From IMG/VR virus record IMGVR_UViG_3300045131_002929, positions 82,618 to 146,617 of that record: DNA of 64,000 bases; one strand, 5' to 3'. Below are positions 38,286 through 46,801 of this stretch, in pieces; position 1 is the first letter of the stretch; every line of letters begins with the position of its first letter. A program made the position numbers and the translations under genes. The notes below the pieces were generated by a model. It was not told the DNA's origin, did no database searches, and saw only the letters and a program-made list of their open reading frames with translations. Source of the DNA: a virus.

Positions 38286-41200
38286 ATGGCGGAACCCAAG
38301 CAAGAGCTGCCCGGGCTTGTCGGCCTGAACGACTACGACGCCCGCCGCAAGCTCATATTCGACTACGCGCTCGAGGGCGTCAAGACCAAATTCCCGGTGG
38401 AGAACACCCAGGTCAGACTGAAGGTCGACAACCTGGCGTACGACGACGATAAGAATTTCACGCCGATGGACCAGAAAGAGGCGCTGCTCAGCGGCGGCTC
38501 GCTGGGGCGCAAGCTGAAGGGCAACTGGGTTCTCGAGGATCTGAAGACCGGCGAAGTGCTGGGCCGGACCTCCAAGAAGACCATAGCCAACATCCCATGG
38601 CTCACCGACCGCGGAACTTTCATACGCAACGGCTCCGAGTCGAGCATCGTCAACCAGATGCGGCTGGTGCCCGGCGTCTTCGTCAAGAACACGGAGGACG
38701 GCAGGGTGGAGACCCATGTGAACGTCAAGCCCGGCACAGGCCATATGTTCAAAGTGTCGATGGACCCGGCCGATCCAGTGTTCGAGGTGATGGTCAAAGG
38801 CCGTAAGATCAAGATGTACCCGCTGCTCAAGGCGCTGGGGGTGCAGGACGCCGACATGGAGGCCGCGTGGGGCACCGAGATCCTCGACAAGAACCGCAAG
38901 CGCGACGACACGCGGTCGGCGGTGTCCGCCGCGCAGACGTTCGGCGCTTTCCGCAGGATCAACAAAACGGCGGACGAGGCCCCGAAGCCGCCGGCGCCGG
39001 AGCAGCCGGAGCTCGGCATAGAGGACGTGGCCGCCGCCTTTCAGAAGATGGAGCTCGACCCTGAGTCGGTCAGCTCCACTCTCGGCAAACCCTACGCCAA
39101 CGTGTCGCCGGCGCTGCTGCTCGACGCCACGAAGAAGATGATCCTGCTCAACAGGGGCATGGCCGAGGCCGACGACCGCGACTCGCTGGAATTCCAGCGG
39201 GTACACATGGCGCATGACTTCATCAAGGAGCGGATCGTCAAGGATTCCGGCGGCATGATCTCCAAGATGTTGTGGAAGGCCACCGCGAAGCGGTCGCCGG
39301 ACGCCATACCGGGCGGTGCGCTGGACAAGCATGTCGACGCCCTCTTCAACTCCGGTGGGCTCACCCAGTACGTCGAGGAGATCAACCCGCTGGATCCCTA
39401 CGACCAGGCGCAGCGGCTGACTCGGCTCGGCGAGGGCGCGCTGGGCGACGCCGTGCCCGACGAGGCGCGCGCAGTGCAGCCCACCTTCCGCGGCTACGTG
39501 GATCCGATACGCAGCCCGCAGAGCTCGGCGGTAGGCCTGGACATGCGCATGGCCCACGGCGTGAAGGTCGGAGCCGACGGCCTGCTGTACAGGGAGATGG
39601 TCAACGCCAAGACGGGCGCCGTGGAGTGGGTCAGCTCGACCAAGGCGGCGCGTTCCGTCATAGGCTTTCCGGAGGCCCTTAAAAGCAAAGACGACTATGT
39701 CCCGGCCACGGTCAAGGCCGAGGGCCTGCAGTATGTGCATAAGGGCACGGTGGACTACGTGATGCGGAGCCCCGGCGACCTTTTCTCGACAATAAGCAAT
39801 CTAGTGCCGATGGTGTCCGGGACGAAAGGCCAGCGGCTGCTCATGGGCGCCAGCTACCACCTGAGCGCGCTGCCGCTGCTGCACCGGGAGGCGCCGCTGG
39901 TCAGATCGGCGCTGCCCGACGGCTCGGATTCGCACAAGGCGCTGGCGCCTTACGCCGGCGTGGTCAGGGCGTCCGAGCCCGGCTTCGTGGAGAGCGTGGG
40001 CAAGGAGTCCATAAAAATCAAAGGCAACGACGGCAAGGTCAAAGAATACCCGCTGTACCACAACTTCCCTTTCGCCCGCAAATCCAGCATGTCCAACTCG
40101 GCGAGCGTGGAGAAGGGCCAGGCCGTCAAGACCGGCGACCTGCTGGCCACGAGCAACTTCTCCGACAAGAAGGGCGAGGTGGCCCTGGGTTTGAATCTGA
40201 GATGCGCGTACATGCCTTACAAAGGCTACCTGCACGAGGACGCCATAGTAGTCTCCGAGTCGGCGGCTAAAAAGCTCACGTCCGAGATGATGACGTCCGT
40301 CAAGATGCGCGACTCCGAGGGCGTGGAGCCTGGCCTGGCTTCGCACATGTCCAGCTTCCCCTCGGCGTTCAACGAGGCGCAGAGGCAGACCATAGGTCCC
40401 GACGGGCTGGTGAAGGTCGGCACCGTCGTCAGGCCGGGCGACCCACTGATCCTGGCCGTGAAGCGGCAGGCGCCGACGGTCGGCTCCATGGGGCGCAGGC
40501 TGACCACCGACCACGCCGTGACATGGGACCACCATGACGCCGGCGTCGTCACGGACTCCCGCAAGACCAAGGAGGGATGGCGCGTGCAGGTACGGGCCAA
40601 CTCCGCCGCGCAGCCGGGCGACAAACTTTGCTATTCGGACGACACCGAGATGCTCACGTCGCGGGGATGGAAGCGCGTCTCCAGCATTGACACTGCCGAC
40701 TATCTGGCTTCCAGGACCGAGGCCGGCGAGCTGGAATACGTGCAGCCGATGGCTATAGTGGACTACGAGTACGAAGGGCCGATGCACCTGGTGGAGACGA
40801 CGCAGGTGTCGCTGATGGTCACGCCCGAGCACAGCCACCTGGCCAAGCGGCGCGGCGCGGACGCTTTCGAGCTCATCCCGGCGGCCGAGCTGTTCGGAAC
40901 CAGATACAGGCTCAAGAAGGACGCCAAATGGAAAGGGTCTTCGCCTGAGTACGTGGACATGCCCGCCTACACGAGAAAAGCAGGCCAGGGCGGCGCGGGC
41001 GAATTGCTCGTGAAGGGCCGCAGGCTGAGTGTGGACGCCTATATGTTCCTACTAGGAGCCTACCTTTCAGAGGGTAACTGCTTCGCCTACGACGGCAACT
41101 ACGGCATAGAGATAACGCAGATCACCGAGCCCAACCGGAGCGACATGCTCGCCAAGCTGAGGGAGTTGGGGATCAAATTCAACGAGGTTAACAATAAGAC

Positions 41201-44200
41201 GAAGGTACGGCTGTACGGGAAGGACCTGGCGCTGCACTTCGAGCAGTTCGGCCGCTCGCACGAGAAGTTCATACCCGACTGGGTCTTCGACTGCGCCAAG
41301 CAGGACCTGGAAACGCTTTATGAGTGGCTGATGTGGGTCGACGGATGCCGCGTATCTACAAGCCACTCGTACTGCACGACATCCGAAAGACTGGCAGGCG
41401 ACATCCAGCGGCTCTGCCTGCACATAGGCCTGGCCGGCACGTTGAAGCGCAGAGACGCGACAGTGGGCGAGATCAAAGGTAAAACTTATGCTCTCAGGCC
41501 GCGGTACGACATCTCGATATACAGACAGAAGCTGGAGCCCGAGATCAACCACGGGCACTGCAAGCGCCAGAAAGGCCAGCGCGAGGAGTGGGCGGCCTAC
41601 TCGGGCCGCGTGTACTGCCCATCACTGCCGAGAAACCACACCGTGTATGTGCGGCGCAACGGCAAGACCTGCTGGTCGGGCAACTGCGGCAGGCACGGAA
41701 ATAAAGGTGTCATAGGGCTCATACTCCCGGACGAGCAGATGCCGAAGGACGCGCAAGGCAGGCCGCTGGAGGTTCTGCTCAACCCCTACGGCGTATCCGG
41801 CCGGACGAATTCCGCGCAGATGATAGAGGCCGCGCTGGGCAAGGTCGCGGCCAAGACGGGCAGGCCCTACGTCATGCCGCTGTTCGGCGACGATCCGGAC
41901 GGCTCGCTCATCAGTTTCGCCAAGGCCGAGCTGGCCAAGGCCGGCCTGCGGGACAAGGAGGACGTGTTCGACCCTTCGCTGAACAAGAATTTGAAAGACG
42001 TGTTCGTCGGCAGCCTTTACATGCACAAACTGCAGCATACGGCCGAGGCCAAGGCTGGCGGGCGGTCGTTCGGCGGATACACCCAGGACAAGCTGCCTTC
42101 CACTGGCGGGCATGACGGTGGTAAGCGTATTGGTAGTATGGAATGCGGGGCAATGTTCTCGCATGGCGCCATGGAGAATCTGAAGGACATGAAGCTGATC
42201 AAAGGCCAGGAGAACTACGACTACTGGCGCGACGTCAAGCTAGGCCGGACGCCGGTCATGCCGCGCGGCAGCTTCCTGTATGACAAATTCAGGGCGCAGA
42301 TGCGGTCGGCCGGCATTAACCTGGAGGACCGCGGCGCGAAGACGCATATATTCGCGATGACGAACGACCAGGCCAAAGAGCTTACGCAGGGCCGCGAGGT
42401 CCAGAACACGGACACCTACGACGCCAAGAAGTTCACGCCGATAAAAGGCGGGATGTTCGACGAGGCGCTGACCGGCGGCGCTGAAGGCAATCTGTTCGCC
42501 ATGGTCAAGCTGGACGAGCCGGTTCTGAACCCGATCATGGAGGATTCGGTACGGCGCATACTCGGCGTCACCATCAAGGATCTGGAGGCGCTGGCCTCCG
42601 GCGACAAGCCCTACAAGGACATGTACGGCGGCAAAGCCTTGAAAGCCAGGCTCGCGGACGTCAATCTGGACATGGAGCTGCTGAAGGCCCGCAACGCTGC
42701 GAAAGGCTCTTCCGGCGCCACGCGCGACGCGGCCGTCAAGAAGATAAGAGCCATAATGTCGATGAAGGAGCATGGCGTTCGGCCGCAGGATTTCATGATG
42801 GACGCCGTGCCCGTGCTGCCGCCGTCGTTCCGGCCGATAACCACGATGGACGGCGAGAACAAGGCCGCCGACGCCAACTACATGTACCGCGAGCTCATGT
42901 TCGCCAGGAACGACCTGCGCGACGCGGCCGCCATACTGCCCGACAAGGATCTGACCGACGCCCGCCGCAAGGTGATAGGGTCGTACAAGTCGCTCGTGGG
43001 CCTGCAGGACACCGACAACGCGGAGCTGTCCGACAAGAAGGTCGGCGGCATACTGGCCACCGTCTTCGGCAAGAGCTCGCCCAAAGTCGGCCAATTCCAC
43101 CGGCGCATGATAGGCATGTCGCAGGATCTCACCACCCGCGCGCCGATCATACCGGATCCGACGCTCCGGGTGGACCAGGTCGGCCTGCCTTTCAACCGCG
43201 CGTGGGAGCTCTACGAGCCTTTCGTCGTCAGGCGGCTCGTGCGCGGCGGCATGCCGGCCACGCAGGCCGCGAAGGCCGTGGCCGACCGCACGGGCCAGGC
43301 CGAGGCCGCCCTGCAGGAATGCGTGCGCGAGCGGCCGGTCATGATAAACAGGGCGCCCACCATGCACAAGCACAGCATAGTGGGCATGTGGCCGCTGCTG
43401 GTCAAGGGCGACTCCATGAAGGTGCCCAACGGAATCCTGGCCCCTATGGGGGCTGACTATGACGGCAACTGCGCCGACTTTAACACAGAACTTAAATTAA
43501 GATTATCAAAGTCCGCGCTTGAGACCTTCGCCGGTCTAGGGTACATTGTCGGTGTCGATGGGACACTAACAAAGGAGACCTGCATGCAGACGGCGGACAC
43601 AAAGGTGGCGATCAAGGCCGAAGGCGTGGTAGCTACCACGCGTATAGGGGAATTCCCCCGCGCTGGCGTACCTGGCAAGGACAGGAACGGGGCGGACGTG
43701 TACGAGGTTCCGGCAGGCGTCGAGGTTCTGACTCTCGACCCGGCTACGCTGAATCCTATATTCTCCGAGGTGACCACGTTCACGGAGGAGAAAGACTGCC
43801 CGTGCGTCGAAGTCGCAACCGACACGCAGTGCGTCATAGTCAGCGACAACGAGTCGCTGTGCGTGTTCGACCACGCCTCGGGCGCGCTCTCGAAGATGGC
43901 GCCGAAGTCTTCCGTGGGCATGTTCTCGCCTTCCGTGCGGGCCATGACCACCGGCGAGGACAAGCACTCCAGGGATCTAGGGTGGTGGGTAGGCGCCTTC
44001 GTGTCGGACGGATGGGTGTCTGGAAATTATGTCGGATACGCCAAGTCCGAGAAGGTTAAAAGGGACGAGTTCGTGCGCATCACCAGGGAGCTGGTGCACG
44101 ACAACTTCAACAGCCGAGAGCACGCCGCCTCCAAGGGCGTCGATAAACTCGGCGACAGCGTTAAACTGCATTTGAACGGCCGCGAGCTGGTCGACGCCGT

Positions 44201-45203
44201 GCGTGGCATGGGTTTCGTGGAGGACGGGCCGGATAGACAGGCTCTCCGCAAGCGCATACCGCCGAAAATGATCTTCGAGGGTTCGGACGAGTTCGCCTGG
44301 GGGTTGTTGTCCGGATTGCTGGACGGGGACGGTACGGTGGCCGTCAACATGCACACCGGCAAGCCCAGGTACACGCTGCGCTTCAGCACCTCGAGCAAGA
44401 GCCTGGTGGAGGGGGTGCGCGCGCTTTGCTGGCGCCTCGGGCTGCGCTGCTGCGTCAGCACCACCCCGCCCAGGGGGCATAGCAAGGAGGCGTACGTCGT
44501 GCTTCCCTCCGTGGTCGACGTACGGCCGCACGCCGGCAAATTAAGCTGCGTCGGGGCTTTAGAGCGCGAGAGGGTGGCAGGCCTGGCGGCGGCCACACTG
44601 CGCCAGGACATCAGGGACTACATACCGCTCACGCTCGATGAGGCGAAGAACTTGAAAATCAGGGCAAAGGATCTGGCCGAGAAGGCGGTGGTGTCGGCGC
44701 TTGATAAAAGGAAAGCCACGCCTTGGTTGAACAGGCAGTATCTAGCCAGGTTGATCGCCGGCGACTTCGCGCTTGAGAAGGCCTTCGAGGCCCGCATGAA
44801 TCCGCGGATACGCTGGGAGCACATAGAACGAGTGACAGACGCCGGCCGACGGGACGTGTACGACTTCGGCGTTCCCGGCTCCAAGGTGTTCGCCGTCGAC
44901 AAGGGCCTGATCATCTGGGACACGCTCACCATCCATGTGCCAGTGTCTGACCTGGCCGTCAAAGAGACCGTGCGCAAGATGATGCCGAACAGGATGCTGC
45001 TGTCCGGGCGCGATTTCAAGCTCACGTACAAGACAGGCCACGAGTACGTGCACGGGGCCTGGCTGGCCACGAAGCCGCCGAAGGAAGGCAAGGCCGTCGA
45101 GTTCGACACCGCCGCCGACGCGAAGGCGGCTTTCCGCGACGGCAAGATAGATGTGGACACGCCTATAAGAATTCGAAGCAGGGACATAGGGGGTGCCCGG
45201 TGA
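38286..45203 (+). CDS. phage multisubunit-type RNA polymerase, beta fused to the N-terminal half of beta', with two inteins
   Basis: Beta motifs GTFIRNG, RLLMGA, GYLHEDAI, GDKL|CGRHGNKGV, LLNPYGV, YMHKLQH, GGKRIGSME; beta' motifs VPVLPPSFRP, MINRAPTMH, GADYDGN|T, IHVPVS. Confidence 0.93.
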   Translation: MAEPKQELPGLVGLNDYDARRKLIFDYALEGVKTKFPVENTQVRLKVDNLAYDDDKNFTPMDQKEALLSGGSLGRKLKGNWVLEDLKTGEVLGRTSKKTIANIPWLTDRGTFIRNGSESSIVNQMRLVPGVFVKNTEDGRVETHVNVKPGTGHMFKVSMDPADPVFEVMVKGRKIKMYPLLKALGVQDADMEAAWGTEILDKNRKRDDTRSAVSAAQTFGAFRRINKTADEAPKPPAPEQPELGIEDVAAAFQKMELDPESVSSTLGKPYANVSPALLLDATKKMILLNRGMAEADDRDSLEFQRVHMAHDFIKERIVKDSGGMISKMLWKATAKRSPDAIPGGALDKHVDALFNSGGLTQYVEEINPLDPYDQAQRLTRLGEGALGDAVPDEARAVQPTFRGYVDPIRSPQSSAVGLDMRMAHGVKVGADGLLYREMVNAKTGAVEWVSSTKAARSVIGFPEALKSKDDYVPATVKAEGLQYVHKGTVDYVMRSPGDLFSTISNLVPMVSGTKGQRLLMGASYHLSALPLLHREAPLVRSALPDGSDSHKALAPYAGVVRASEPGFVESVGKESIKIKGNDGKVKEYPLYHNFPFARKSSMSNSASVEKGQAVKTGDLLATSNFSDKKGEVALGLNLRCAYMPYKGYLHEDAIVVSESAAKKLTSEMMTSVKMRDSEGVEPGLASHMSSFPSAFNEAQRQTIGPDGLVKVGTVVRPGDPLILAVKRQAPTVGSMGRRLTTDHAVTWDHHDAGVVTDSRKTKEGWRVQVRANSAAQPGDKLCYSDDTEMLTSRGWKRVSSIDTADYLASRTEAGELEYVQPMAIVDYEYEGPMHLVETTQVSLMVTPEHSHLAKRRGADAFELIPAAELFGTRYRLKKDAKWKGSSPEYVDMPAYTRKAGQGGAGELLVKGRRLSVDAYMFLLGAYLSEGNCFAYDGNYGIEITQITEPNRSDMLAKLRELGIKFNEVNNKTKVRLYGKDLALHFEQFGRSHEKFIPDWVFDCAKQDLETLYEWLMWVDGCRVSTSHSYCTTSERLAGDIQRLCLHIGLAGTLKRRDATVGEIKGKTYALRPRYDISIYRQKLEPEINHGHCKRQKGQREEWAAYSGRVYCPSLPRNHTVYVRRNGKTCWSGNCGRHGNKGVIGLILPDEQMPKDAQGRPLEVLLNPYGVSGRTNSAQMIEAALGKVAAKTGRPYVMPLFGDDPDGSLISFAKAELAKAGLRDKEDVFDPSLNKNLKDVFVGSLYMHKLQHTAEAKAGGRSFGGYTQDKLPSTGGHDGGKRIGSMECGAMFSHGAMENLKDMKLIKGQENYDYWRDVKLGRTPVMPRGSFLYDKFRAQMRSAGINLEDRGAKTHIFAMTNDQAKELTQGREVQNTDTYDAKKFTPIKGGMFDEALTGGAEGNLFAMVKLDEPVLNPIMEDSVRRILGVTIKDLEALASGDKPYKDMYGGKALKARLADVNLDMELLKARNAAKGSSGATRDAAVKKIRAIMSMKEHGVRPQDFMMDAVPVLPPSFRPITTMDGENKAADANYMYRELMFARNDLRDAAAILPDKDLTDARRKVIGSYKSLVGLQDTDNAELSDKKVGGILATVFGKSSPKVGQFHRRMIGMSQDLTTRAPIIPDPTLRVDQVGLPFNRAWELYEPFVVRRLVRGGMPATQAAKAVADRTGQAEAALQECVRERPVMINRAPTMHKHSIVGMWPLLVKGDSMKVPNGILAPMGADYDGNCADFNTELKLRLSKSALETFAGLGYIVGVDGTLTKETCMQTADTKVAIKAEGVVATTRIGEFPRAGVPGKDRNGADVYEVPAGVEVLTLDPATLNPIFSEVTTFTEEKDCPCVEVATDTQCVIVSDNESLCVFDHASGALSKMAPKSSVGMFSPSVRAMTTGEDKHSRDLGWWVGAFVSDGWVSGNYVGYAKSEKVKRDEFVRITRELVHDNFNSREHAASKGVDKLGDSVKLHLNGRELVDAVRGMGFVEDGPDRQALRKRIPPKMIFEGSDEFAWGLLSGLLDGDGTVAVNMHTGKPRYTLRFSTSSKSLVEGVRALCWRLGLRCCVSTTPPRGHSKEAYVVLPSVVDVRPHAGKLSCVGALERERVAGLAAATLRQDIRDYIPLTLDEAKNLKIRAKDLAEKAVVSALDKRKATPWLNRQYLARLIAGDFALEKAFEARMNPRIRWEHIERVTDAGRRDVYDFGVPGSKVFAVDKGLIIWDTLTIHVPVSDLAVKETVRKMMPNRMLLSGRDFKLTYKTGHEYVHGAWLATKPPKEGKAVEFDTAADAKAAFRDGKIDVDTPIRIRSRDIGGAR
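40629..41684 (+). mobile_element. intein 1 in the RNAP beta GDK..GRHGNKG motif (352 aa, LAGLIDADG)
   Basis: Begins CYSDDTEMLTSRGW; VTPEH; LGAYLSEGN and WLMWVDG; ends VRRNGKTCWSGN with Cys +1. Confidence 0.93.
43470..44921 (+). mobile_element. intein 2 at the RNAP beta' catalytic motif (484 aa, LAGLIDADG, C-terminal Asp)
   Basis: Begins CADFNTEL; VGAFVSDGW and LSGLLDGDG; block F VYDFGVPGSKVFAV; ends IIWD with Thr +1. Confidence 0.88.
43519..43586 (+). promoter_or_regulatory. internal sigma70-like promoter, SD and in-frame ATG inside RNAP intein 2
   Basis: TTGAGA-N17-TACATT (43519-43547), AAGGAG (43572-43577), ATG at 43584 in frame. Confidence 0.6.
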
Positions 45204-46801
45204 GCTCCGAACAGTCGTCGATCATCCATTTCGTGCCGGCCGAGGCCGAGGCCGACGTCAAGTCGAACGGGCTTATGACCGCGCAGGCCCTGTCGGCGGC
45301 CGGCCGGCCGGAGGGCGCGCGCCACCTGGCCAGCTATCTGGCGAAGATGAAGTTCAAGCCGGAGGCCAAAGCGGCCTACGACAAGGCGCTGGCGGGCGTG
45401 GCCGCCCCTACGGAGGATGAAAAGGCCGTGGCGGCCATGAAAGCCGTCCGCGGCGACACGCTGGCCGACTCCGGCGGCGACTGGGTGTATGGGTTCACCA
45501 AGGGGCAGGCGGAGCGCGTCCGCGGCATACTCGCGCGCAACCGCTCCAAGTGGCTGGACGGCAGGGTGCCGTACGAGATAGACCTGGCCGGCCTGAAAGC
45601 GGCGGATCTGCTCATGAAGGCCGAGAACACGGAGGCGCGCCAGATACTCGCCCAGCGCATAAAGGCCAATCGGCTGGCGGGCAGATCGCTGCTGCACGGC
45701 ATAGAGCATCCGCGGATCATGGTCAAGGGCGGCGTGGTGCCGCCTAGATTTCTGAAAAGGATCGAGATGCTCAAAGAGGGCGGCGATACGTTAGAGAAGA
45801 CACCCCAACTCTCAAAATCGGGACATAATGGAATGGACACACCCTTCGACCTGTATCTGACGAAAATGGCGGCGGCGCCACGGGTTAAACCCACGTTCGC
45901 AGCCGGCGGCCTCGGCGCCTCAGTGCCTGCCGAGGTTAAAAAGAAGCTGCTCGGCACGCCCGGCAAGGCGAAGCGGAAAGTCGACTTCGAAGAGCTGGTC
46001 GACAAAGGGGCGGTAGCCGATCCTTTCCGCAAACAGGCCGGGTGGCGTGAAGAGGCGGCCGGGTTGAAGGATGGCGTGGCCGACTGGGTGAAACGCACAT
46101 CCCAATGGGCGCGAGACCCGCTAAGCTTAAAAGCCCTCGCCGCCGCGCCGGGCAGGATACTCAACGACCCCGACGCGATGAAAATGGCGAAGACCGAGAT
46201 AGGGCCTTCTGCGGCGAGCCTCGCAAGGGTGATAGACGACAAGGCCGAGCTTAACAAAAAATGGAAGCCGGCGGTGGACGCGGCGCCCGATACACAACTT
46301 ATCGACAGAGCGCAAAAAGCCTATGCCAATCCAGTAGTCCGCGAGTTCGCGGCCAAGTCCGATCTGGATAAGCTGCGGACAGGCATAGAAGGCATTCCGG
46401 CCGGGTACGGCGCCTATAACACGTACAACCACGCGGCCGGCTGGCTTACTCGGAATTATCCGAACGCGACGGCCGTGCTAGACACCGTAGCGCCTAAATG
46501 GTCACCTAAGGCAAGGGAGTGGGTGGCGGAGCGGACCATCGACAAAGCCAAGGCCGGCGAGGCTCAAATGGCGGCGGCGCTGGACCAGAATAAGGGTAAA
46601 CTGGATATGGCGCAAAACCTGGCGCCTTTCTTCCCCATGTGGGAAGGTTTGAAAGGGGCGGCCGTCGGCGGGGCCAAGCAGCTGTGGGCGGGGGCGCCTG
46701 GATTCATAGAAAAGACGCAGGCCGGCGCGCTGCGCGCCGGCGAGCCGCTGGGCGGAATAGACAGGCGCGCGCTGGCGCCTATGCGAAATCAAGCTAGCTA
46801 A
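45200..46801 (+). CDS. hypothetical protein, possibly two fused genes (internal start at 45833)
   Basis: Internal MDTPFD..LTKMAA resembles the N-terminus of the next gene; FRKQAG motif. Confidence 0.6.
   Translation: MSSEQSSIIHFVPAEAEADVKSNGLMTAQALSAAGRPEGARHLASYLAKMKFKPEAKAAYDKALAGVAAPTEDEKAVAAMKAVRGDTLADSGGDWVYGFTKGQAERVRGILARNRSKWLDGRVPYEIDLAGLKAADLLMKAENTEARQILAQRIKANRLAGRSLLHGIEHPRIMVKGGVVPPRFLKRIEMLKEGGDTLEKTPQLSKSGHNGMDTPFDLYLTKMAAAPRVKPTFAAGGLGASVPAEVKKKLLGTPGKAKRKVDFEELVDKGAVADPFRKQAGWREEAAGLKDGVADWVKRTSQWARDPLSLKALAAAPGRILNDPDAMKMAKTEIGPSAASLARVIDDKAELNKKWKPAVDAAPDTQLIDRAQKAYANPVVREFAAKSDLDKLRTGIEGIPAGYGAYNTYNHAAGWLTRNYPNATAVLDTVAPKWSPKAREWVAERTIDKAKAGEAQMAAALDQNKGKLDMAQNLAPFFPMWEGLKGAAVGGAKQLWAGAPGFIEKTQAGALRAGEPLGGIDRRALAPMRNQAS

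Follow-up and report, generated by a model that had tools for sequence, protein, structure and literature searches.

PolD, a two-barrel polymerase, reads NCDGD in its acidic loop, with an asparagine at one position of the catalytic triad, and it functions with either asparagine or aspartate there (PMC7708050). About half of the archaeal species that encode PolD carry an intein between that asparagine and the cysteine that follows it (PMC7708050), and the flanks of the Pab and Pho PolII inteins read KRN/C...Q/CDGDED, slashes marking splice junctions here and below (PMC8175363). Inteins ending in Asp or Gln also splice (Amitai, Dassa and Pietrokovski 2004, as cited in PMC4031507). Tko CDC21-1 has no histidine at block position B:10 and uses Lys58 instead, and only two inteins without this histidine were known in 2014 (PMC4031507). 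Work on M86 Ssp DnaB likewise describes the activation of the N-terminal scissile bond in the absence of the block-B histidine (PMC6333167). The histidine of the NX motif is specific to inteins that start with serine (PMC10189870).

The locus described here lies in a window of 64,000 nucleotides, the whole stretch of viral DNA that was analysed (positions 82,618 to 146,617 of IMG/VR record IMGVR_UViG_3300045131_002929). It concerns the D-x-D-G-D loop of RNA polymerase, which binds magnesium and whose three aspartates vary as little as any residues known in biology; all three are kept in every known two-barrel RNA polymerase. Substitutions in the triad reportedly abolish nearly all the activity of the enzyme (a finding said to be that of Sosunov in 2005). 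In the window, the third aspartate is encoded as asparagine and is directly followed by an intein.

The polymerase gene and the intein in its catalytic loop

The gene is a single open frame, and the features relevant to the argument are the following:

38286..45203, plus strand: precursor ORF of a fused beta / beta'-N-terminal phage RNA polymerase, one open frame of 2305 aa
43455..43469, plus strand: catalytic loop D-Y-D-G-N, codons GAC TAT GAC GGC AAC
43470..44921, plus strand: intein 2, 484 aa, from Cys1 (TGC, 43470-43472) to Trp483-Asp484 (TGG GAC, 44916-44921)
43788..43790, plus strand: Glu107 of the intein, acidic in 162 of 163 inteins of the N/C clade and His in 18 of 18 related Asp(-1) inteins
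43842..43856, plus strand: block B, S-D-N-E-S, in place of the canonical T-x-x-H (S-x-D-H-S in sister clades)
43977..44789 (approximate limits), plus strand: nested LAGLIDADG homing-endonuclease domain (Pfam PF14528, E 9e-13)
44856..44921, plus strand: blocks F and G, VYDFGVPGSKVFAVDKGLIIWD, with Asp465 (F:4) retained
44922..45203, plus strand: C-extein, from Thr+1 (ACG, 44922-44924), TLTIHVP..., 93 aa and the stop codon

The ORF has Pfam matches to RNA_pol_Rpb2_6, Rpb1_1 and Rpb1_2 and shares about 29% identity with gp206 of Salmonella phage Arash. A second, canonical intein lies in frame within the same gene, and the polymerase amounts to 1469 aa once both inteins are subtracted. Asn (AAC, 43467-43469) takes the third place of the triad and is at the same time residue -1 of intein 2. 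At the same place, the intein-free relatives L005-L007 read DFDGD/TMTIHVP and phage Arash reads DYDGD/ALSMYLP. Alignment with 103 colinear intein-free relatives delimits an insert of exactly 484 aa between DYDG[N] and TLTIHVP. The junction proposed in the initial annotation, DYDG-N followed by Cys1, 484 aa ending in Trp-Asp, and TLTIHVP, is borne out by the translation, and its N(-1), Cys1 and terminal Asp recur in all 163 homologues of the clade.

Intein 2 has three of the features of class 1 inteins, Cys1, Thr+1 and Asp at F:4, the last being invariant across the intein family. It lacks the block B T-x-x-H with His B:10, the His at F:13 and the C-terminal His-Asn, so that none of the three canonical catalytic histidines is present (0/3). 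Glu128 replaces His B:10, a position that is Glu in 142 of the 163 N/C inteins, Ala, Asp, Pro or Gln in the other 21, and His in none; the preceding Asn127 (B:9) is found in 162 of 163. Lys472 (44883-44885) occupies what we take to be the usual place of His F:13, assigned via block F of Ssp DnaB, and is Lys in 146/163. Trp483 stands at the position of the penultimate histidine and Asp484 (44919-44921) at that of the terminal asparagine. Residue 107, upstream of block B, is possibly the equivalent of the NX-motif histidine of Ser1 inteins (PMC10189870).

The structural model of intein 2 has an intein plus LAGLIDADG fold (AF2 pLDDT 87.7, pTM 0.85). Its top Foldseek matches are TliVMA (7qss, E 3e-18), PI-PfuI (1dq3) and PI-SceI, with E values ranging from 3e-18 to 1e-12, and a phmmer search with the intein against PDB sequences gave nothing significant. 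The endonuclease domain contains the motifs GAFVSDGW (Asp180 at 44007) and GLLDGDGT (Asp285/287 at 44322-44330), keeps the conserved motif columns and matches the folds of I-DmoI and PI-SceI. Other class assignments were considered. A class 3 intein, with no N-terminal nucleophile, Cys at F:4 and a WCT motif, is ruled out by Cys1 and Asp F:4; a class 2 intein of the KlbA type (Ala1, Ser G:6, Cys+1) by Cys1, Trp G:6 and Thr+1; and a Ser1 oxyester intein with the NX-motif histidine (PMC10189870) by Cys1 and Glu107. A start at Cys38-Met39, past an AT-richer stretch, was also rejected, because the conserved C-x-D-F-D-[ST]-E-I at Cys1 fits block A. Intein 2 is best explained as a functional, mobile class-1-type intein with a nested LAGLIDADG endonuclease, one of a separate clade whose active site is acidic.

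Junction residues and mobility across the family

All 163 inteins of the clade read D-x-D-G-N/C...(W, Y, F or Q)-D/T(S), and the third triad position is Asn in every one of them and Asp in 103 of 103 intein-free relatives. A scan of IMG/VR DNA found no intein-free polymerase reading DFDGN-TM, against at least 94 reading DFDGD-TM. The initial annotation had predicted this alignment outcome, with the asparagine confined to intein-bearing alleles and the intein-free ones reading DGD. The three refuting conditions that it had named fail: a sequencing error at two codons is at odds with N(-1), Cys1 and the terminal Asp in all 163, no intein-free homologue reads DGN, and a decaying gene does not agree with an intact ORF in which the remaining Asp, Asp and Gly of the loop are invariant.

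The clade comprises 148 clusters among 1.84 billion representatives. The 181 inteins in which both junctions can be located all sit after D-x-D-G of an RNA polymerase, no other host protein having been found among them. A tblastn search with the intein against 50,697 phage records gave no match, which points to the lack of a cultured carrier, and a published description of this intein clade was not found in the literature.

Every one of the 176 inteins in the Asp-ending clades has the terminal Asp, and 13 of them, relatives inserted at this site, have Asp at -1 as well (12 with Ser1, one with Thr1). Since these Asp(-1) clades branch outside the N/C clade, the terminal Asp is an inherited family trait that predates Asn(-1), and not a compensation for it. 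The reciprocal exchange of N and D suggested in the initial annotation is rejected on this ground. The residues that do covary with Asn(-1) are Cys1, a Glu or Asp at 107 where the relatives have His, and a block-B Asn where they have Asp; no intein combines Asn(-1) with Ser1 (0/181). The N/C clade is monophyletic, and the pairing of Asn(-1), Cys1 and acidic 107 has one origin and one nested reversal, P0312. An intermediate, P0287, has Asp(-1), Cys1 and His107. P0312, with Asp(-1) and Asn at B:9, breaks the covariation between -1 and B:9 (Asp-Asp versus Asn-Asn), while that between -1 and residue 107 survives. In all, the replacements in the N/C clade are His107 to Glu/Asp, His B:10 to Glu, His F:13 to Lys, and the penultimate His to Trp/Tyr. 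The clade is far more diverse than the Asp(-1) Ser1 clades, a count biased by searches seeded with an N/C query.

In other related inteins inserted here the last residue is Asn (HN/T and SN/T). A side clade, D/(Q, E or A)...SN/T, is class 2-like, yet has Thr+1. In two relatives, L004 and L008, the split is real, with the break in the intein linker and only a very short N-piece before it; several proteins of about 540 aa that start at the internal Met look similar, but for at least one of them (P0188 / L009) the cause is a contig truncation.

In the extein tree the N/C label switches 34 times, the nearest extein neighbour is intein-free for 16 of 68 N/C alleles, and an N/C intein is also present at the identical site in phiKZ-like split beta' subunits. 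Intein-bearing alleles have intact ORFs and, in the loop, never vary at the first two Asp or the Gly. These patterns indicate that the host polymerase is under selection and that the intein is mobile. Compensating extein changes were sought in the 230 aa before and the 85 aa after the junction, where no column separates N/C from intein-free alleles (largest difference 0.62). Position +1 is Thr or Ser in 181 of 181 inteins at the site and in under half of the intein-free alleles, which have A, T, Q or E there. This conservation, against a variable +1 in intein-free alleles, argues for splicing with ligation and not for cleavage alone; from it and from the intact host ORFs we infer protein splicing with extein ligation.

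Fate of the asparagine

That the element is a real intein, that it is spliced in the canonical register and that it is the intein which demands the asparagine are, taken jointly, very probable. What becomes of the asparagine is less certain. The leading explanation, which is put forward tentatively and to which we give slightly less than an even chance, is that Asn is retained and that D-x-D-G-N is functional in the polymerase, though perhaps with reduced efficiency. Cys1 would form a thioester with the carbonyl of Asn(-1), the N-extein would be transferred to Thr+1, and Asp484 would cyclise, as in known Asp-ending inteins, and release the intein; the ligated polymerase would then read DYDGN-TLTIHVP. 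An Asp at -1, beside the Cys1 thioester and facing acidic 107, would either cyclise or be repelled and would lead to N-terminal cleavage in place of splicing. This would be the reason why Asn(-1) is demanded, Asp being kept only in the Ser1/His107 relatives. In the mature enzyme, the carbonyl oxygen of the asparagine could serve as a magnesium ligand in place of one carboxylate, as in the N-C-D-G-D of PolD. Whatever the cost, the spread of the element would be sustained by its homing endonuclease. Against retention, all three Asp are kept in every known two-barrel RNA polymerase, and the asparagine is clearly not neutral, because all 103 intein-free siblings have Asp and IMG/VR holds no intein-free DFDGN. 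The Asn of PolD, moreover, is at the first triad position and is native even without the intein, and the diversity of the N/C clade is odd if Asn is costly.

The strongest rival is rather unlikely but clearly ahead of the remaining ones: with the same intein and register, Asn(-1) would become Asp in the course of splicing or directly afterwards, and the mature enzyme would read DYDGD-T. The intein itself could catalyse the deamidation, for instance with the Cys1 thiol, acidic 107 and Lys472 attacking the carboxamide of Asn(-1), or a succinimide could form at Asn(-1)-Cys1. Necessity speaks for conversion, since Asp is universal here (103/103 intein-free siblings) and yet the N/C clade is large and successful (163 clusters, two host polymerase families), as does the fact that Asn is the sole residue yielding Asp by simple hydrolysis. 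The strict pairing of Asn(-1) with Cys1, never with Ser1 in 181 inteins, fits a thiol-dependent amidase step, but it is equally explained by the avoidance of Asp beside a thioester. Cys1 (163/163), an acid at 107 (162/163) and Lys472 (146/163) stand at classical active-site positions adjoining the Asn, a set that presumably resembles the Glu-Lys-Cys amidases by functional analogy and not by membership. A triad built on Glu128 is weakened, since B:10 is not invariant (Glu in 142 of 163, another residue in 21); the invariant acid is Glu/Asp107. Moreover, the Ser1 relatives and the nested revertant P0312 manage with an Asp that is encoded directly, we know of no intein that changes an extein side chain, and the spontaneous deamidation of Asn-Thr or Asn-Cys takes weeks and gives mostly isoAsp. 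If conversion took place, no earlier protein-splicing element would be known to modify a side chain of its extein, and an essential catalytic residue would be absent from the gene.

It is improbable that the Asn polymerase is crippled or dispensable, with the gene persisting through a selfish intein, or that the codons are assembly errors. Homing endonucleases can drive costly elements, and no isolate carrying the intein occurs among the 50,697 phage records; however, the same residues are present in 163 independent clusters, ORFs of 1700-3700 aa stay open with the other two Asp and the Gly invariant, and the same gene holds its second, canonical intein in frame.

A register shifted by one is more improbable still. 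In this case the segment from Asn and Cys1 to Trp483 would be excised, and the third Asp of the polymerase itself would precede Thr, giving DYDG-DT. The DNA alone is compatible with both ways of placing the insertion, the Asp(-1) Asp-ending clades give the same product both ways, the terminal Asp never varies (176 inteins), and the shift would explain how position -1 was freed to change. But Gly-Asn and Trp-Asp would have to be cleaved without a nucleophile at position 1 or +1 and without a cyclisable residue before the C-terminal bond, for which we know of no chemistry, while Cys1/Ser1 and Thr+1 are placed exactly for the canonical register, which is also that of the relatives at the same site ending in Asn (HN/T, SN/T). 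The initial annotation had raised a splicing that keeps the intein-side Asp, and this is the least likely of its three outcomes, having no plausible chemistry.

Equally remote is cleavage only. Asn(-1) would here cyclise on its own activated carbonyl, as C-terminal Asn thioesters readily do, and its succinimide would hydrolyse, so that the chain would end in Asn or in Asp alpha-amide (isoAsn); the 93-aa C-piece would be freed when Asp484 cyclises, and the polymerase would work as two chains. Such phage polymerases tolerate split subunits and L004 and L008 are split in the intein linker, but the latter are better read as trans-splicing split inteins, and Thr/Ser+1 in 181/181 inteins, which the polymerase does not need, points to true ligation by way of a branched ester.

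The implications are several. Over 160 gene clusters for phage polymerases, belonging to two polymerase families that are distant from each other, encode Asn at the third position, and only where the N/C intein is present. If the Asn stays, a multisubunit-type RNA polymerase would work on D-x-D-G-N, extending the precedent of PolD, and a selfish element could burden its host with a catalytic residue that is less than optimal; if the Asn is converted, inteins would be able to edit a flanking host residue chemically. In addition, this single insertion site offers a natural variant series for intein chemistry, with His-less Cys1/Asn(-1), Ser1/Asp(-1)/His107, nucleophile-less SN/T, canonical HN/T and split forms, plus one natural revertant. 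Protein engineering might also profit from inteins that are histidine-free, end in Asp and have a very short N-piece.

Comparison with known inteins

Intein 2 has the same fold, domain order, Cys1, Asp at F:4 and +1 hydroxyl nucleophile as TliVMA (7qss), PI-PfuI (1dq3) and PI-SceI (1vde) and, like class 1 LAGLIDADG inteins, it is inserted in frame within a highly conserved motif of its host. It differs from these three in having no His at B:10, F:13 or G:6, a terminal Asp and not Asn, a demand for Asn(-1), and an extra helix with a disordered linker after block A. In known inteins ending in Asp or Gln, the C-terminal Asp can cyclise for release, as proposed for intein 2 (PMC4031507). These keep the catalytic histidines and have no known demand at -1, whereas here the Asp is fixed in a lineage of at least 176 members. 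Compared with Tko CDC21-1 and M86 Ssp DnaB, it is a whole clade that combines Glu at B:10 with an acidic 107.

In the Asp(-1)/Ser1 sister clades, the invariant His107 upstream of block B fits the Ser1-specific histidine (PMC10189870), and the split of L004 and L008 after a very short N-piece resembles that of the atypically split PolB16 OarG intein (PMC10189870). Unlike the cysteine-less Ser1 inteins and PolB16, intein 2 is a contiguous Cys1 derivative in which His107 has become Glu.

A close parallel is found in the PolD (DP2) PolII inteins of Pyrococcus abyssi and P. horikoshii, which share the homologous acidic loop, Asn(-1)/Cys1 and an atypical terminus (Gln), the Asn of PolD aligning with an Asp of RNA polymerase (NCDGD versus DFDGD). 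The PolD intein is a mini-intein that lies after the first triad position, with Cys+1, a terminal Gln and the canonical histidines, whereas intein 2 lies after the third. The Asn of PolD is native and is kept in intein-less species, while intein-free alleles of the RNA polymerase always have Asp. With these differences, PolD may be taken, by analogy, as a precedent for the retention of Asn in the catalytic loop.

The polymerase gene and its two inteins

The IMG/VR virus record containing the window is 146.6 kb long. Within the window, one open reading frame encodes a fused beta and beta'-N-terminal RNA polymerase, whose closest cultured relatives (phage Arash gp206 and Vibrio phages D69 and D181) are about 29% identical to it. 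Two inteins are found within the precursor (slashes mark splice junctions):

38286-45203, plus strand: RNA polymerase ORF, single frame, 2305 aa, with Rpb2 and Rpb1 domains
40629-41684, plus strand: intein 1 (aa 782-1133, 352 aa), GDKL/C...SGN/CGRHGNKG
43470-44921, plus strand: intein 2 (aa 1729-2212), GADYDG-N/CADFNTEL...GLIIW-D/TLTIHVP

Intein 1 occupies the GDK...RHGNKG motif of beta and has ordinary termini (Cys1...Gly-Asn/Cys). Its block F starts V-Y-C, and its homologues sit in unrelated genes (nucleotidyltransferase, terminase, thymidylate synthase) of Mycobacterium, Gordonia and Corynebacterium phages and Lak megaphages. The polymerase stop codon overlaps by four bases a 533-aa ORF (45200-46801) that has no Pfam match; since the polymerase ends only 93 aa past the catalytic loop, this ORF may be a source of the missing beta' C-terminal functions.

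Insert 2 is an intein. Translation of the window gives exactly the junction sequence described in the initial annotation. Comparison with relatives that lack the intein and align without interruption through the site (DFDGD/TMTIHVP in loci L005-L007, DYDGD/A... in Arash and D181) sets the insert at exactly 484 aa. It contains a LAGLIDADG domain (Pfam), and its C-terminal two thirds align with intein-containing DnaB and RpoA'' models (NCBIfam). Block A is recognisable in the start C-x-D-F-D-[ST]-E-I, and blocks F and G in V-Y-D-F-G-V-P-G-S-K-V-F-A-V...I-I-W-D. An AlphaFold2 model based on 42 homologues (pLDDT 87.7, pTM 0.85) has intein-endonucleases as its top PDB matches: TliVMA (7qss, E 3e-18), followed by PI-PfuI and PI-SceI.

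Junction residues across the family

A set of 5.8 billion proteins, searched three times, and 1.84 billion representatives, searched exhaustively with phmmer, yielded 312 proteins, in which HMMs of the N- and C-exteins of intein-free alleles served to place the junctions. Of the first 186 polymerases, 103 lack an insert at the site and all of these read D-x-D-G-D, while 68 read D-x-D-G-N/C...(W, Y, F or Q)-D/T (or S). With later matches included, both junctions were located in 181 inteins at the site; 163 are N/C inteins (Asn(-1), the third triad position of the polymerase, followed by Cys1), and all 163 have a terminal Asp and Thr or Ser at +1 (one end that looked like KN/T in pattern matching is in fact YD/T). 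A scan of IMG/VR DNA found no intein-free DFDGN-TM polymerase (five matches, none in a polymerase); the control DFDGD-TM gave at least 118 matches, at least 94 with polymerase context. The initial annotation had named three things that would refute its reading: a sequencing error, intein-free homologues reading DGN, or a non-splicing, decaying gene. All three fail, because the junction is a family trait and DGN is limited to intein-bearing alleles. No published description of this family was found in the full-text literature, nor any cultured phage carrying the N/C intein by tblastn against 50,697 phage records.

Related inteins at the same site
Asp(-1)/Ser1 or Thr1...(W, Y or Q)-Asp/Thr: 13 cases
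Asp(-1)/Gln, Glu or Ala...Ser (or Lys)-Asn/Thr, without N-terminal nucleophile: 5 cases, plus locus L004 with Tyr
Asp(-1)/Ser...His-Asn/Thr: 1 canonical mini-intein
Asp(-1)/Cys: 1 case, P0287

In the intein phylogeny, the N/C clade is monophyletic (support 1.0, 68 tips), its sister being P0102, a D/S member (Asp(-1) followed by Ser1). Other Asp-ending D/S clades branch outside it, so the terminal Asp predates Asn(-1). The suggestion that N and D had been exchanged is therefore not borne out: the terminal Asp is the older residue, occurs together with Asp(-1) in related inteins, and does not compensate for the Asn. No extein column near the junction compensates for it either. Asn(-1) covaries instead with residues of the intein.

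Residues in the N/C clade and in the other inteins at the site (n=18)
Residue 1: Cys 163/163; mostly Ser
Residue 107: Glu/Asp 162/163; His 18/18
Block B:9: Asn 162/163; Asp 17/18
Block B:10: Glu 142/163; His 8/18, else Pro/Ala/Asp/Glu
Block F:13: Lys 146/163; variable

P0312, deep within the N/C clade in a 15-tip subclade (support 1.0), has jointly reverted to Asp(-1), Ser1 and His107 and retains the N-E-S block B; it is a second, independent instance of the coupling of Asn(-1), Cys1 and acidic 107. P0287, which combines Asp, Cys and His107 with a D-H block B, resembles the intermediate state. The three canonical catalytic histidines are all absent from the N/C clade, whose active site is acidic; only two inteins without His at B:10 were counted in a 2014 review (PMC4031507). 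Pasch et al. 2023 (PMC10189870) reported an overlooked histidine upstream of block B that is restricted to Ser1 inteins and close to the N-terminal scissile bond; in the Ser1 relatives, His107 is a candidate for this residue.

Proposed splicing, split relatives and mobility

The canonical register and steps fit all the conserved nucleophiles: a thioester would form at Cys1, the N-extein would be transferred to Thr+1, the terminal Asp484 would cyclise, and an O-to-N shift would give the ligated product DYDGN-T. All inteins at the site are followed by Thr or Ser at +1, a residue that varies in intein-free alleles (A 46, T 38, Q 10, others); this argues for a branched ester intermediate and ligation rather than cleavage alone. 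In thioester-forming expression vectors, Asp(-1) leads to N-terminal cleavage by cyclisation; Minteer et al. reportedly described in 2017 such off-pathway cleavage by an Asp adjoining an intein. An acidic residue 107 would additionally repel Asp(-1). Because Asp(-1) would cyclise or be repelled, the Cys1/acidic-107 clade would need Asn, whereas the Ser1/His107 relatives could keep Asp.

A strong Shine-Dalgarno sequence and start (AAGGAG at 43572-43577; in-frame ATG, Met39, at 43584-43586) lie within an AT-richer, low-confidence linker after block A of intein 2. Met39 is conserved in 54 of 68 N/C inteins, the surrounding linker being variable, and follows a purine-rich run of Glu/Lys-rich codons. 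This pattern suggests an internal start giving a separate endonuclease-bearing part, or the legacy of a split ancestor. Two relatives' loci, L004 (4740-5060) and L008 (5860-6030), are genuinely split in the same linker. L004, of the D/Y...SN/T type, is interrupted by an in-frame TAA 25 codons past DFDGD, after which come GGAGG and ATG. In L008, of the N/C type, ORF1 ends ...NLDFD-RSLSLTKTTSCGIVC and a stop, then AAGGAG and ATG precede ORF2 (P0190); G-N-C-x-D-F-D is missing, apparently lost by slippage between two DFD repeats. Both may be inteins split in an atypical way, with a very short N-piece, or else alleles in decay. A nucleophile-less side clade at the same site (P0087, P0138, P0180, P0308, P0069 and L004) has Gln, Glu, Ala or Tyr at position 1, T-D-D-D-P in block B, Asp at F:4, a Ser(or Lys)-Asn end and Thr+1. 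Class 2 inteins are similar but have Cys+1; the side clade may therefore use a splicing mechanism that has yet to be described.

The N/C intein is scattered on the extein tree (34 label changes), the nearest extein relative is intein-free for 16 of 68 N/C alleles, and Asp is kept in both LAGLIDADG motifs. The same clade also occupies this site in split beta' N-terminal subunits of phiKZ-like jumbo phages (...GADFDGN/C...VVYD/TVS...; P0249, P0253, P0265 and P0269 among others), a family only distantly related to the fused enzyme of the window; this implies that the intein has moved between host gene families and brought the Asn codon with it. Cultured members of the phiKZ-like group, for instance Vibrio phage pVa-21 (L010), lack the intein and read DFDGD/T. 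Intein-bearing alleles never vary in the catalytic loop's first two Asp or its Gly, so selection acts on the active site of the polymerase.

Fate of the asparagine

Our leading reading, held tentatively and at somewhat less than even chances, is that the Asn is retained in the spliced polymerase. Its conversion to Asp is the main alternative, held to be somewhat less likely. In favour of conversion, no RNA polymerase is known to have a residue other than Asp at the third triad position, and the intein-free siblings of N/C polymerases also all have Asp there. The large, successful N/C clade and the strict pairing of Asn(-1) with a thiol (Cys1) also favour conversion. Little weight is given to a shifted register, to a crippled enzyme or to maturation by cleavage only, the last running against the universal Thr or Ser at +1.

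Retention of the Asn is favoured because archaeal PolD works with Asn or Asp and carries an intein after Asn. PolD has a two-barrel catalytic core common with RNA polymerases and the loop NCDGD, and is functional with either residue at the RNA polymerase Asp position (PMC7708050). Roughly half of the archaeal species that encode PolD have an intein exactly between the loop Asn and Cys (PMC7708050), with flanks KRN/C...Q/CDGDED (PMC8175363). The phage polymerase resembles PolD, then, in having an Asn in the catalytic loop where RNA polymerases have Asp, and an Asn/Cys intein junction.
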